Below are positions 1 to 32,728 of a DNA stretch of 64,000 nt, one piece after another. Location of the stretch: NCBI GenBank assembly GCA_020724865.1, contig DYGA01000002.1, forward strand, positions 12,032 through 76,031. The letters run 5' to 3'. Source of the DNA: Candidatus Paceibacter sp. Its GTDB lineage: Bacteria > Patescibacteriota > Patescibacteriia > S139-126. Position 1 is the stretch's first letter. Each line of letters opens with the position of its first letter. Below the pieces are notes generated by a model, which did not search any database, had not been told where the DNA came from, and worked only from the letters and a program-made list of their open reading frames with translations. The position numbers were made by a program, and so were the translations under genes.

Positions 1-2871
1 ATCAAACAAAAAGCTGAGGATCCAACACGATATGGATATCGAACTCCAGAACTGAATTATCTTGTAAGAATGGCGGAAAAAAAACCAAAAGAAGTTGCAG
101 ATATAATGCTTTCAGTGGTTATTTCAAAAGATAATTTTAATCCCGAAGTTATCGACCAATTTTTGAGAATTTGCAGTTCTTTGCCAGCAGAGCAATTAGC
201 GAGAATAGTACCGAAAATTCGCGATGAGGGCTGGGTGCAACTGATGAGTATATTTAATCAATGGGGTTTTGAGTATGAAAAAATATTCCAAACGCTTGCC
301 GTCGCTAAGGACTATGAGAGTATTTTGACTCTCGCCGAAGCGGTGCTTGCCGTAAAGACAAAAGAAGAATATAAGCAAACTTCTCATGGTTATTTATCGG
401 ACAATCCTTTTTATTTCACTGACCTTTCATATACAAAAGTCTTTGAATGTTTAGTGGCTGTAGACGATCAATATCTTGAAAAGGCATTGGAAATTACAAC
501 AAGAGTGATGGCGACAATCGTGCTTTTGGGCGAAGATGCCGAGAAAAATGAAGTGTTTCAGATTCATGAACCTTTTTATCTTTTTGATGTTGATTTCTTT
601 TCTTTGGAATTGGGCGATGAAAAACATCATTCAGACCGAGAAAACGTCAAAGATTTAGCGGCAACCATTAAAGCACTTACTCGAAGATTAATTGGTAACA
701 ATTGCGACAAATCAGAATTGATTAAAGAGGTTTATAAAAAATATATTCAAACTCTACCAGAAAGCAGGTCGATGTGGCGACTGCGTCTTTTCGTTTTGAG
801 TTTGTGCCCAAGCACCTTTCAAATAGAATTGAGACAATCTTTCTCAAGATTATTTGAGGTGATGGATGTTGGTAAGCATTATTACGAAATTGAATCTGGA
901 ACAGAATATAAGAAAGCCCTTAAACAGAGCTTTAGTGTTTTGGATTCTACTTATCAACGTGAATATGTTTCTAATGTCTTTAAGCATTTCGGGCAAAGCC
1001 GTGAAGACAAAAAAGAGGAACAATGGTATAAGCGTGATGGCTGGCAGATTCTTTCCAGTATTTGTGATTCTTTAATTCAAGAAGAAAAAGAAGATTGTGA
1101 AAAAGTATTTGGTAAAAAATGCGATCCTGCTTTTGAACCCGAACCGTCCATTGGGAAAATAGTGAGTGGTTTTGTAAAGCCGAGAGCCGCAATTTCTCAG
1201 GAAGAATTTGGTAAACTTTCCATTGCTGATATTGCCAAAAAATTAAGAGAAGATTGGAAACCAGAAGCTTTAAGGAAAAAGAATACAAGCGATGATTTTT
1301 TGTATCCTCTGAATGCCGAAGGCGTTGGAGAACAATTACGTGCTGATATTGCTAAACGATTACAGGACTATGTTCAAAACGCTAATTTATTCTTTGAGAG
1401 AGATGTTCTTGATGAGCATTATACCTATTCCTTCTTTCGGGGTGTTCAGGAAGCTATACGTTCCGATAAAACAAAGGCAGCAAGTGCCCAGTGGGATAAG
1501 CTGATTGAAACTTTTGTTGCTATTAAGAATTCGGGAACTATAAAAGCCTTTGATCATAAAATCAGAGAGCGAGAAAAATTTGATGCCTGGCTTTCAAGTT
1601 GGACTGGTGTGCACTCTGCGATGACCGATATTTTACAGGAATTATTGAATGAAACTGAAGGGAAAATCATTATAGATTTTCCAAAATATCGCAACCAGCT
1701 TTTTGAGACTATAAGCTATCTTTTAGCGTATCCTGACCCAGAACCGCAAGATGAGGAATTGAAAACAGCAATCATGAAGACCCACGCTCCTGGCAATAAA
1801 GAAGAGTATTTTGTTAGCGATCCATTTACGATGGCAATCAATACAGTACGCGGTCGCGCGTTCCAGGCTTTTGTATTATTTGTTTACCAAGACGGAAAGC
1901 AATTCAAAAAAGAAGATAAAATTAAAATTGCTTCTGATGTAAAAGAGTTATATGAGGAAGTTTTAAGAAAAGAGAACACTCGCGCCTTGATGTTTATGTT
2001 CGGTCACTATCTGCCTTCTTTTTACTTTCGTGATATAGAATGGACTCACAAACTTTTACCTCAAATCTTTCCAGAAGAAACAACTAAAAAACATCTTTAC
2101 CTGGCTGCCTGGGAGGGTTATCTTACTAATAATCTTTACGAGGAGATATTCTTCGATCCAGAATTTCAAAAATTATACGAGAGAGGATTAGTTTTGACTG
2201 GCAGTGAAGATCCAAAACGCAAATATTTCAAAAAACCAGATGAAGGAATCGCTATTCATTTGGCGTTGGCATTTGTTGTCTATCACAAAAAATTTGGATT
2301 TGACCACCCTCTTTTTGAGAGATTCTGGAAACAAAATACTGAACGACAAAGCGAATTCATTAGTTTTATTGGGCGGATGTTTGTCTCTGGTGATAACGCT
2401 CGTGTAAATGAGCAGTTGAAAAAAGACCCAGAAATTAAAAAGAGATTAACTGAATTCTGGGAATGGTTGCTTAAGAATTATAATGACCCGAAACTATTTG
2501 TTGAGTTTGGATTTTGGGTGAATCTTGAGAAAAAAATTTTTGAGCCAGTTTGGCTGGCTAAACAAATAAAGGCGACCTTAGAAAAAACTAAGGGAGTATT
2601 GGAATTGGATTATGCTCTCACCAAGTCTATTAACGAATTGGCTAAAGCCGCGCCCAAAGATACATTGGAAATCGCCCGTTTGTGCTTGTTTGAAGGCGGG
2701 GTACGTGACGGTAAAATGCGCATGCTATTTATGTACTACGAGGAATGGTTTGAGGCAATCAAAATTCTCTATGAAAATATCGAAACAAAAGACGATACTT
2801 ATAAACTTATCAACGATTTGATTCGTGAAGGAGGGAGTACTTTTTGGAAATTAAAAGAGGTTATAAACTAA
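1..2871 (+). CDS. Large uncharacterised protein, 5'-partial. The reading frame is open from nt 1 in the same frame as the ATG at 70, so the gene probably starts upstream of the window. Alpha-helical, with no recognisable catalytic motifs.
   Basis: ORF 70..2871 (933 aa). Frame 1 has no stop between nt 1 and 70. No Walker A or nuclease motifs seen. Only a 6-nt gap to the downstream Mrr-like gene. Confidence 0.55.
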   Translation: MKQKAEDPTRYGYRTPELNYLVRMAEKKPKEVADIMLSVVISKDNFNPEVIDQFLRICSSLPAEQLARIVPKIRDEGWVQLMSIFNQWGFEYEKIFQTLAVAKDYESILTLAEAVLAVKTKEEYKQTSHGYLSDNPFYFTDLSYTKVFECLVAVDDQYLEKALEITTRVMATIVLLGEDAEKNEVFQIHEPFYLFDVDFFSLELGDEKHHSDRENVKDLAATIKALTRRLIGNNCDKSELIKEVYKKYIQTLPESRSMWRLRLFVLSLCPSTFQIELRQSFSRLFEVMDVGKHYYEIESGTEYKKALKQSFSVLDSTYQREYVSNVFKHFGQSREDKKEEQWYKRDGWQILSSICDSLIQEEKEDCEKVFGKKCDPAFEPEPSIGKIVSGFVKPRAAISQEEFGKLSIADIAKKLREDWKPEALRKKNTSDDFLYPLNAEGVGEQLRADIAKRLQDYVQNANLFFERDVLDEHYTYSFFRGVQEAIRSDKTKAASAQWDKLIETFVAIKNSGTIKAFDHKIREREKFDAWLSSWTGVHSAMTDILQELLNETEGKIIIDFPKYRNQLFETISYLLAYPDPEPQDEELKTAIMKTHAPGNKEEYFVSDPFTMAINTVRGRAFQAFVLFVYQDGKQFKKEDKIKIASDVKELYEEVLRKENTRALMFMFGHYLPSFYFRDIEWTHKLLPQIFPEETTKKHLYLAAWEGYLTNNLYEEIFFDPEFQKLYERGLVLTGSEDPKRKYFKKPDEGIAIHLALAFVVYHKKFGFDHPLFERFWKQNTERQSEFISFIGRMFVSGDNARVNEQLKKDPEIKKRLTEFWEWLLKNYNDPKLFVEFGFWVNLEKKIFEPVWLAKQIKATLEKTKGVLELDYALTKSINELAKAAPKDTLEIARLCLFEGGVRDGKMRMLFMYYEEWFEAIKILYENIETKDDTYKLINDLIREGGSTFWKLKEVIN

Positions 2872-9354: not shown

Positions 9355-9376
9355 CTCGCTAGCTAGCGAGGTTTTT
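9355..9376 (+). terminator. Perfect 16-nt GC-rich palindrome (ctcgctagctagcgag) plus a T-run; terminator-like hairpin
   Basis: Read directly from the sequence. It sits immediately 5' of the truncated ABC ORF. Confidence 0.55.
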
Positions 9377-30291: not shown

Positions 30292-30311
30292 CCTGCCTAC
30301 CGGTAGGCAGG
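30292..30311. repeat. Perfect 20-nt GC-rich palindrome cctgcctaccggtaggcagg
   Basis: Read directly. Sister of the palindrome at 32504-32523. Confidence 0.8.
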
Positions 30312-30589
30312 AATGAATTTTAAATTATTTAATTAATAAATTAAGTCATTGATTAGTAATTCGTCATTAGTAATTAGTAATTTATTTTTTTAATAGTTTG
30401 TCAAAAACGCCAGTTTATTTTACTATTAAATCCTGAAATCACCTTGAGTAGGGTACAAGTTTAGAATGATAATAAGATGATAATAATCCTAACTGTCATG
30501 CTGAACTTGTTTCAGCATCTAAAAATAGACCCTGAAACAAGTTCAGGGTGACAAGGGTGAATAAGTTCAGGGTGTCATAATTATATACT

Positions 30590-32148: not shown

Positions 32149-32235
32149 TGGTGCCGCGGGAGAGAATCGAACTCTCATGAGCTTGCGCTCACAGGTTTTT
32201 GAGACCTGCGTGTCTACCAATTCCACCACCGCGGC
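32149..32235 (-). tRNA. tRNA-Leu (CAA) with a long variable arm
   Basis: GCCGCGGTGGTGGAATTGGTAGACAC...anticodon loop CTCAAAA...long variable arm...TTCGATT T-loop...CCA. Confidence 0.8.
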
Positions 32236-32242
32236 GTATTTT

Positions 32243-32479
32243 CTATTGTATATTTTTTAAATATTCTTTACCAATTCCTGATTTTAAATATTTCTCTCTT
32301 TTCCGTGCTTGTAACCGTGTGTCATAGGTTTCGTAGATTATCAATTGAAATGGCTTATAAGGCTTTGTCGTTTTATTTAAACCAGTGTTATGTTGATGAA
32401 ACCTTCTTTTTAAATCATTAGTTAATCCTACATATATATAATTTTTGTTTACACTTTTTATGGCGTACACAAAATACAT
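32243..32479 (-). CDS. Stand-alone GIY-YIG nuclease-domain protein (78 aa)
   Basis: YFVYAIKS...YIYVGLTNDLKRRFHQHN... = GIY-YIG core (Y..Y.....YVG...N...R...H) and C-terminal basic helix (RKREKYLK). Confidence 0.75.
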   Translation of the reverse strand: MYFVYAIKSVNKNYIYVGLTNDLKRRFHQHNTGLNKTTKPYKPFQLIIYETYDTRLQARKREKYLKSGIGKEYLKNIQ

Positions 32480-32492
32480 ATTTTTATATTAA

Positions 32493-32538
32493 GTGTCTAC
32501 CAACCTGCCTGCCGGCAGGCAGGTTCCACCACCGCGGC
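32493..32538 (-). other. Duplicated 26-nt 5' segment of tRNA-Leu (acceptor/D-arm) interrupted inside the D-loop by the 20-nt palindrome cctgcctgccggcaggcagg (32504-32523). A decayed second unit lies at ~32584-32615.
   Basis: gtgtctaccaa[cctgcctgccggcaggcagg]ttccaccaccgcggc versus the genuine tRNA gtgtctaccaattccaccaccgcggc at 32210-32235. Confidence 0.7.
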
Positions 32539-32728
32539 ATTTTTATTTTTATTAAAGTAAGTATTAAGTAACCAGTTTGTCAGCAGGTAGGATTCACCAT
32601 TACCGCAAATTTTTATTGCGTATTTATAAAATTAATCAAAAATATTAAATTTGTCAACAAAATCTTTTTGATAAATAAACAAAATATTGTATAATAATAC
32701 TATCTGAATATCATCAGAAAATTATTTT

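Follow-up and report, generated by a model that had tools for sequence, protein, structure and literature searches.

Two described systems stand closest to the locus reported here. The Ssn nucleases, small single-domain GIY-YIG proteins associated with NTS/SRM hairpin repeats, are site-specific nucleases of single-stranded DNA (ssDNA) (Chenal et al. 2025, PMC11893778), whereas T4 SegB is a free-standing GIY-YIG homing endonuclease encoded within the phage transfer RNA (tRNA) gene cluster (PMC2330249). The locus lies in a 64-kb stretch of Candidatus Paceibacter sp. (contig DYGA01000002.1), hereafter the window, in whose coordinates positions are given unless another locus is named; L-numbers denote the loci or contigs compared with it. 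It carries a gene for a 78-amino-acid (aa) GIY-YIG protein, a perfect 20-nucleotide (nt) palindrome and a partial copy of tRNA-Leu(CAA), placed directly beside the intact tRNA-Leu(CAA) gene, and is one member of a very widespread tRNA-Leu-specific GIY-YIG and palindrome cassette. No description of the palindrome, or of a GIY-YIG gene with tRNA-Leu or tRNA fragments, was found in the searchable literature, the coverage of which is incomplete so that an earlier description is possible; to this extent the first-pass annotation of the stretch, made from the letters alone, was right in not recognizing a described element. The cassette is either a homing-type selfish nuclease gene or a hairpin-associated GIY-YIG nuclease, and fits the full definition of neither Ssn/NTS nor the free-standing homing endonucleases. 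We favour, at a probability of roughly 0.6, a homing-type selfish nuclease cassette that colonizes the 5′ end of tRNA-Leu(CAA), with the tRNA-Leu sequence as its landing site and the intact tRNA regenerated.

Ssn/NTS is the closest functional analogue of the cassette. Ssn proteins (CDD cd10448; ~80–100 aa) and the cassette protein are both small with one GIY-YIG domain, both genes are flanked by a GC-rich hairpin-forming repeat (~20–30 nt) that is also dispersed in genomes, and both are found in more than one phylum. Aligned to an Ssn-type protein, the family profile shows 34% identity and an hhalign probability of 96%, although the cassette protein lacks the C-terminal ~25 aa of the latter. 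The cassette repeat is a perfect palindrome without the oriented GTC flank of Ssn repeats, and the published SRM motif (HGTCWY...RNCYNB) had 0 matches in the window or across 304 kb of homologue loci, whereas 4 flanking SRM motifs were found at the positive control, an Ssn-type gene on a Shinella plasmid. Unlike Ssn, the cassette gene is itself a presence/absence element, and it is tied to tRNA-Leu with partial tRNA duplications ('tRNA' occurs 0 times in the main text of PMC11893778). SegB and I-TevI share with the cassette the GIY-YIG core, a position beside or between conserved genes (tRNAs for SegB), presence or absence between close relatives, and a cycle of invasion, degeneration and loss. 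These are proteins of 200–250 aa with a linker and DNA-binding modules, whereas the 78-aa protein has no C-terminal DNA-binding module, and they show neither the partial target-gene duplication nor the palindrome association of the cassette. They also reside in phage or organelle genomes, whereas the cassette family gave only 6 weak or edge hits among 2.9 million viral contigs searched for a phage vector. A dispersed short palindromic repeat clustered beside a small nuclease gene, with no target-site duplication, is shared with the repetitive extragenic palindrome (REP)/RAYT and IS200/IS605 systems, the enzymes of which are HUH Y1 transposases with covalent intermediates and no tRNA specificity, whereas GIY-YIG enzymes hydrolyse. 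These systems are ruled out, as the only protein is GIY-YIG and no HUH Y1 transposase is present.

The cassette at tRNA-Leu(CAA) and its relatives

The 303-nt cassette consists, in order, of tRNA nt 1–15, the palindrome, tRNA nt 16–26, a leader, the 78-aa GIY-YIG gene and a spacer (Table 1). Next to it stands a functional, regenerated copy of tRNA-Leu that is the same as the tRNA at the empty sites of relatives or differs by one substitution. The direct repeat runs in tRNA orientation, with nt 1–15 from 32538 to 32524, nt 16–26 from 32503 to 32493 and only the palindrome between. On the cloverleaf, nt 1–26 make up the 5′ acceptor strand and the whole D arm (nt 26 closes the D stem), and the split falls between A15 and U16 in the D loop, where the flanking AA/TT of the tRNA extends the palindrome to 24 nt. 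A 26-mer split by a gap of fixed length (20 nt) would be expected by chance 3e-11 times in the window, which is AT-rich (34% G+C). These results bear out the first-pass annotation exactly as regards a GIY-YIG gene upstream of the tRNA-Leu 5′ end (7 nt away, by ARAGORN, Rfam and Pfam) and a 26-nt repeat of the tRNA 5′ end split in the D loop (15 + 11 nt). The repeat is indeed derived from the tRNA, with 26/26 nt matching here and fragments that match the local tRNA-Leu in dozens of other genomes. The further decayed unit that it noted is likewise real, as positions 32570–32599 align to the proximal unit with a score of 28, which 0 of 2000 shuffles reached (mean 10.8, maximum 18), and this unit is the scar of an earlier occupation.

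Table 1. Features of the window at and near the cassette
Feature	Position	Strand	Basis
Intact tRNA-Leu(CAA), 87 nt including CCA	32149..32235	-	ARAGORN; Rfam tRNA, 59 bits
7-nt spacer, GIY-YIG stop codon to tRNA nt +1	32236..32242	-	direct reading
Stand-alone GIY-YIG nuclease gene, 78 aa, catalytic domain only	32243..32479	-	Pfam PF01541, E 1.2e-18
AT-rich leader, 13 nt, tRNA fragment to ATG	32480..32492	-	sequence
Copy of tRNA-Leu nt 16–26 (D loop 3′ part and D stem 3′ strand)	32493..32503	-	exact 11-nt match
Perfect 20-nt palindrome CCTGCCTGCCGGCAGGCAGG inside the tRNA copy at 15/16, no target-site duplication	32504..32523	.	sequence
Copy of tRNA-Leu nt 1–15 (5′ acceptor strand, D stem 5′ strand, D loop start)	32524..32538	-	exact 15-nt match
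Decayed older unit: degraded tRNA 5′ fragment and degraded palindrome	32570..32606	-	alignment; end at 32606 (GCGGTAA...) by eye
Ancestral ParA-to-tRNA spacer, conserved TTGACA at 32657-32652 (-)	32607..32728	-	homology to the L214 empty-site spacer
Second, intergenic palindrome copy CCTGCCTACCGGTAGGCAGG, paired change of G8-C13 to A8-T13	30292..30311	.	sequence

The mobility of the cassette is evident from its presence and absence within a species and from its gain, degradation, loss or replacement across relatives. Two independent assemblies of the same species with near-identical flanks, a metagenome-assembled genome (L227) and a sequencing-run assembly (L228), lack exactly 32236–32538, i.e. 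the 303 nt bounded by the 26-nt direct repeat and ending on the left at 32538, and their empty junction reads from ...AATAAAAATAAAAAT directly into intact tRNA-Leu. The older scar is retained in both, is variable in L003 and is absent from L011–L013. We ranked the relatives as a ladder by identity of the neighbouring ParA to that of the window, the named homologues of which belong to the Patescibacteria group (Falkowbacteria, Parcubacteria). At 100% (the window and L001–L010) the site is occupied and holds the old scar, and contigs with an identical GIY protein have the same locus arrangement as the window; at 99% (L227, L228) it is empty; at 93% (L011–L013) it is occupied by a GIY gene that is 87% identical; at 89% (L214, L229) it is empty; at 85% (L230–L232) it holds a degenerate copy; at 84% it holds a different GIY gene of 41% identity in L216 and is empty in L233; and at 77% and 74% (L217, L218) it is empty. 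Such a pattern is one of invasion, degeneration, loss and re-invasion, as expected of a selfish homing-type gene. The first-pass annotation had asked for an empty-site comparison, and had named as its alternative a conserved housekeeping paralogue in an arrangement that does not vary between relatives; the site proved polymorphic, and the alternative fails on the empty, degenerate or otherwise occupied sites. The old scar and the current unit together fit its suggestion that insertion and excision occurred here repeatedly.

The individual steps of the ladder are informative as to age and decay. The fragment and palindrome unit of the 93% lineage matches that of the window at 45/46 nt, whereas the adjoining ancestral spacer is only ~65–79% identical. 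Between the window and L011, third codon positions are 79% identical in the GIY gene and 54% in ParA (Fisher p = 6e-5). This lower divergence suggests a cassette younger than the host split, or homogenized, and gives indirect support to cleavage and gene conversion of empty alleles; the ratio of nonsynonymous to synonymous change (dN/dS) of the GIY gene against its L011 orthologue is 0.14, indicating purifying selection. The ParA-to-tRNA spacer of the empty sites in L214 and L229 is 129 nt, and that of L214 aligns to the ParA-proximal part of the window spacer including TTGACA, with homology stopping ~10 nt before tRNA +1. The corresponding region of the window is presumed to be the tRNA-Leu promoter region, now upstream of the whole insertion. 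In the degenerate copy of the 85% lineage the gene begins with GTG, stops after 51 codons and has lost the invariant Gly18, while the palindrome is truncated and the tRNA fragment degraded; a tRNA 3′ fragment with a palindrome downstream of the tRNA is a further scar in this lineage. In L216 the same tRNA-Leu site has a GIY gene preceded by two copies of tRNA nt 1–12, each followed by different hairpin repeats, with one unit lacking its open reading frame (ORF). L216 as a whole (1–480 and 1800–2400) holds two other GIY-YIG subfamilies, of which the one at the tRNA-Leu site has the hairpins CCCTGAACC... and CCTGCACC...GGTGCAGG. The second lies directly after tRNA-Met(CAT), with its stop codon within an anticodon-loop copy, and the tRNA-Met 3′ fragment is broken by three TCCCGCGNCCGCGGGA palindromes and by a 34-nt palindrome in the T loop.

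Transfer RNA genes are well known as sites of integration, the hallmark of which is a partial duplication of the tRNA. An att-type duplication left over from a larger integrase-borne island, or else an assembly artefact, is nevertheless extremely improbable here, as the polymorphic unit is just 303 nt and encodes no integrase, the 5′ rather than the 3′ end of the tRNA is duplicated, and an identical structure is present in >10 independent assemblies and ~70 other species. Of related element types, a tRNA-targeting integrative island with a tyrosine or serine recombinase was rejected on the same two grounds of a missing integrase and a repeat of the tRNA 5′ end, and a group I intron in tRNA-Leu on the grounds that the tRNA is uninterrupted and no intron family matched at E up to 1.

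The catalytic domain covers all 78 aa of the protein (67.6 bits to PF01541 against a cut-off of 22.6). The AlphaFold model has a mean predicted local distance difference test (pLDDT) score of 96 and the canonical beta-beta-alpha-beta-alpha-alpha order, a three-stranded sheet flanked by helices, and its nearest Foldseek matches are UPF0213 BH0048, the Slx1 nuclease domain (template modelling score ~0.7) and the I-TevI catalytic domain. Among 89 homologues, Y5, Y16, G18, H30 and E62 are invariant and R26 is nearly so. Y5, Y16, R26 and H30 correspond to I-TevI Y6, Y17, R27 and H31, and E62 is the likely equivalent of I-TevI E75. The modelled fold and the conserved residues support a predicted active enzyme. 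UPF0213 proteins (YazA, YhbQ, BH0048, EF2693) are the best sequence neighbours and, with the Slx1 nuclease domain, the nearest in sequence and structure, although identity is only 26–39%; Slx1 is a structure-specific nuclease on branched DNA, whereas UPF0213 proteins have no assigned function and no reported tRNA or palindrome link. PADLOC, PHROGs and NCBIfam gave only generic homing endonuclease or GIY-YIG hits.

Association with tRNA genes across phyla

Close homologues of the 78-aa protein number >1000 (60–87% identity), and 14,220 cluster representatives among 1.84 billion match at E <= 1e-3. We examined linkage in a sample of 80 species-level genome loci from Patescibacteria, Bacteroidota and Ignavibacteriota, with homologues of 58–87% identity. 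A tRNA-Leu gene lies <=150 nt from the ORF in 74 of the 80, in every case on the same strand, and all five Leu anticodons are represented, with the ORF immediately upstream or downstream of the tRNA. The gap between ORF and tRNA is usually 1–14 nt (45 ORFs of this type in other genomes), and that between tRNA fragment and ATG is 0–18 nt in most other loci. Beyond the ORF, on its far side from the tRNA, most loci also carry exact copies of parts of that tRNA, which answers the call of the first-pass annotation to look for other GIY-YIG copies beside tRNA fragments. These comprise nt 1 to ~24–44, occasionally to ~70, at upstream-type ORFs, and ~nt 18–45 through to the tRNA 3′ end at downstream-type ORFs. 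Tandem arrays of the fragment, palindrome and GIY unit occur, as do solo scars. The same architecture, with a full tRNA on one side and fragments on the other, thus recurs in three phyla at tRNA-Leu genes with any of the five anticodons, and an intact tRNA-Leu is kept in every case.

Homologues average 64% identity inside a phylum and 62% across phyla, i.e. there is almost no phylum-level structure, for which horizontal spread is the best explanation. Distant subfamilies of 35–50% identity have the same design and the same palindrome at tRNA-Asn, tRNA-Ser and tRNA-Lys genes, the GIY-YIG gene at tRNA-Met in L216 (81 aa) has the same design with different GC-rich palindromes, and one homologue of 49% identity ends 3 nt before a tRNA-Arg gene, where no palindrome was found.

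The tight same-strand linkage suggests co-transcription, and might reflect a cellular role on tRNA-Leu RNA (processing, quality control or a toxin-like tRNase), with the gene kept adjacent for co-expression and the fragments incidental. A 2006 survey of the GIY-YIG superfamily mentions no link to tRNA genes and notes a prokaryotic Slx1-cluster GIY-YIG domain fused to a TrmH-like tRNA Gm18 (D-loop) methyltransferase, for which a role in RNA metabolism was suggested (PMC1564403). The fusion is possibly an independent hint that links this GIY-YIG branch to tRNA. We consider a cellular role on tRNA-Leu RNA very unlikely, as a strain of the same species and many close relatives retain the tRNA without the gene. 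The gene is a pseudogene in one lineage, forms tandem arrays, and may stand upstream or downstream of the tRNA, whichever the Leu isoacceptor, and the nearest folds are those of DNA nucleases.

In several loci, although not in most, the duplication runs past the tRNA ends (15/15 nt of flank identical). An origin of the fragments from mature tRNA, at the RNA level, is therefore unlikely. Whole tRNAs that are merely interrupted were also considered; in-silico removal of the palindrome restored just one extra tRNA call, indicating that the fragments are truncated copies. The tRNA-Ile(TAT)-like gene at 1668–1761 of L088 is called by ARAGORN only with its D-loop palindrome removed in silico, and has an uninterrupted copy 150 nt upstream. 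In L043 (2236–3086), one GIY gene is followed downstream by five tRNA-Leu(CAA) copies repeated in tandem every 192 nt. Four of the five have a D-loop palindrome, part of which ARAGORN uses in calling them as tRNAs. Many of the called homologues (P0241–P0390) are 100–140 aa long with N-terminal extensions of 20–60 aa upstream of the 78-aa core, which may arise where gene calling has read through the palindrome and tRNA fragment.

The 20-nt palindrome

At the cross-phylum loci the tRNA fragments are interrupted by CCTGCCTGCCGGCAGGCAGG or close variants without target-site duplication. Insertions cluster at a few positions, namely 14/15–15/16 in the D loop, 23/24 at the junction of D loop and stem, 39/40 at the 3′ edge of the anticodon loop, 44/45 where the variable arm starts and 68/69–69/70 in the T loop. 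The D-loop position used in the window is occupied by the same palindrome in Bacteroidota, Ignavibacteriota and other Patescibacteria. It stands 15–36 nt before the ATG (upstream-type ORFs) or after the stop codon, always on the side away from the tRNA. As ssDNA, both the minimum-free-energy and the centroid folds are a hairpin with a 10-bp stem. A copy lies <=120 nt from the ORF in 62 of the 80 loci, and 18 have no recognizable palindrome (with <=3 mismatches allowed).

The palindrome is not confined to such loci. The copy at 30292 (Table 1), the only other one in the 64-kb window, lies just after a terminator-like hairpin, has no tRNA-like flanks and is fixed in 8 strain contigs, which showed no polymorphism of it; among the empty-site relatives no copy was found in only ~37 kb, too little for a test of co-occurrence. 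An exact 20-mer scan of unbiased metagenome contigs yielded 85 copies examined among the matches listed; their contigs span 29–71% G+C, and 7 lie <=600 nt from any tRNA (none near tRNA-Leu) and 4 <=500 nt from a GIY homologue. Such a distribution makes the palindrome a dispersed element in its own right that is strongly concentrated beside the GIY family. The first-pass annotation had noted it in the D-loop split; it is present there as described, but it is not private to this locus. Apart from a depletion of T at position −1, no flank motif was found around dispersed copies. One-sided transitions dominate its variation at loci L014–L093 (85 copies), with G8 to A in 12 and C13 to T in 12, a mutational hot spot in the central GCCGGC that is possibly due to deamination or methylation. 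A terminal inverted-repeat model, in which the palindrome is the excision footprint of the cassette, was rejected, as no half-palindromes bound the cassette.

Two rivals to the homing-type reading draw on this dispersal. According to the first, the gene would encode a host-retained, Ssn-like ssDNA nuclease that acts on dispersed palindromes and restricts or shapes incoming or replicating ssDNA, so that gene and palindromes would accumulate at tRNA-Leu because landing in tRNA fragments is tolerated, and any movement of the gene would be passive. Small single-domain GIY-YIG proteins with their own flanking hairpin repeats are proven nucleases of this kind (PMC11893778), the family profile aligns to one as given above, and the palindrome is dispersed far from GIY genes, with the second window copy 2 kb off. 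The strict same-strand tRNA-Leu adjacency (74/80) and the regenerated tRNAs are, however, unexpected of a housekeeping nuclease, the gene itself rather than the palindrome alone is present or absent within the species and degenerates in relatives, and the SRM motif, which flanks the control gene, is missing; on balance we hold this rival to be unlikely. The second takes the palindrome for an independent miniature mobile element, unrelated to GIY-YIG, that lands in non-essential tRNA fragments by chance or sequence preference, with the GIY cassette mobile alone. It can call on the wide G+C range of the 85 listed copies, mostly without a nearby GIY gene, on the 18 loci that lack a recognizable palindrome and on the different hairpins of the L216 gene. 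It is more unlikely still, given the contrast of 62 in 80 loci with one other copy in 64 kb, the invariance of the 20-mer across phyla, which needs a conserved protein partner, the limited palindrome-to-ATG distance (~15–36 nt) of upstream-type loci, and the same palindrome beside GIY subfamilies at other tRNAs.

At 30495–30552 the window contains a pair of hairpin elements in inverted orientation, GTCATGCTGAACTTGTTTCAGCATC (+) and GTCACCCTGAACTTGTTTCAGGGTC (-). Their layout (GTCAY, stem-loop, RTC) resembles Ssn NTS/SRM, although neither matches the published SRM pattern. No second GIY-YIG gene is present in the window.

A possible route of spread

In the homing-type reading, the nuclease, with its Slx1/UPF0213-like fold, would nick or break DNA in or beside the tRNA-Leu gene, and may act on single-stranded or extruded DNA, the palindrome insertions mapping to the loops of its cloverleaf. 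Repair would then copy the cassette from an occupied allele, with tRNA sequence as the only homology arms. For a donor of structure [1..x]-GIY-[1..87] and a break at x, the left end would invade the fragment, synthesis would cross the cassette and the right end would anneal in the full tRNA copy, such that synthesis-dependent strand annealing would reproduce the donor structure. Under this scheme the essential tRNA-Leu would always be regenerated intact and a fragment left behind. Copying by tRNA homology would explain the tRNA-Leu specificity without a DNA-binding domain, as well as the switching between Leu isoacceptors, the subfamilies on other tRNAs and the cross-phylum spread. The cassette probably rides on the tRNA promoter, as the presumed ancestral promoter region upstream of the insertion makes co-transcription with the tRNA likely. 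By analogy with Ssn/NTS, the nuclease most likely has the palindrome as its cognate hairpin or dyad site; the palindrome may also protect the mRNA end and, by splitting the 26-nt direct repeat, would hinder precise excision of the cassette.

Several observations weigh against this reading. The cleavage, the target site and the copying step are inferred and none was observed, and the escape from self-cleavage of the adjacent intact tRNA, which is identical to the presumed target, is unexplained. The protein has no DNA-binding domain, for which 78 aa leave no room, and so the first-pass suggestion of an element of the homing-endonuclease type stands as regards mobility and is tentative as regards classical homing. 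The extension of the duplication past the tRNA ends at some loci only implies that its origin is not uniform. Most of the metagenome palindromes listed are far from a tRNA or GIY gene, which reduces the link to the nuclease to a local enrichment, and palindrome variants at positions 8 and 13 are mostly one-sided rather than compensatory. A preference of dispersed copies for hairpin apices is not significant (stem >=6 bp in 4.9% against 2.4% of controls, p = 0.14), and this confines the loop-targeting idea to tRNA contexts.

A wider proposal, which we advance tentatively and regard as possible rather than probable, is that of a hitherto unrecognized type of minimal mobile element. A GIY-YIG nuclease that consists of the catalytic domain alone would, together with an invariant 20-bp palindrome, invade tRNA genes at cloverleaf-loop positions by recognizing DNA structure rather than sequence, the tRNA would be regenerated by local duplication, and spread between phyla would be possible because tRNA sequence supplies the homology; sister subfamilies would be those on Asn, Ser and Lys (same palindrome) and on Met (different). 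That the mechanism itself is new is likewise a real possibility. If the model is true, a dedicated parasite resides at tRNA-Leu genes over much of the bacterial tree, and a nuclease of <80 aa gains its target specificity without a DNA-binding domain, from DNA structure and the universal conservation of tRNA, a reliance that would also explain the spread between phyla. For annotation, the element accounts for many tRNA-Leu fragments and bears on the homologues that are called with the N-terminal extensions described above. The protein is also a candidate for a nuclease that recognizes a structure or hairpin and has a defined 20-nt site, which is a property now exploited in Ssn enzymes, and the occupied and empty alleles within one species make the question of homing directly testable.

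Two minor observations concern the records and the window. The record of L011/L014, CAZINS010000001.1, is labelled 'uncultured Gammaproteobacteria bacterium', which is probably wrong, as gene order and ParA relatives fit the Patescibacteria-like lineage of the window. An isolated perfect palindrome of 16 nt, GC-rich, lies at 9355–9370 of the window (CTCGCTAGCTAGCGAG).

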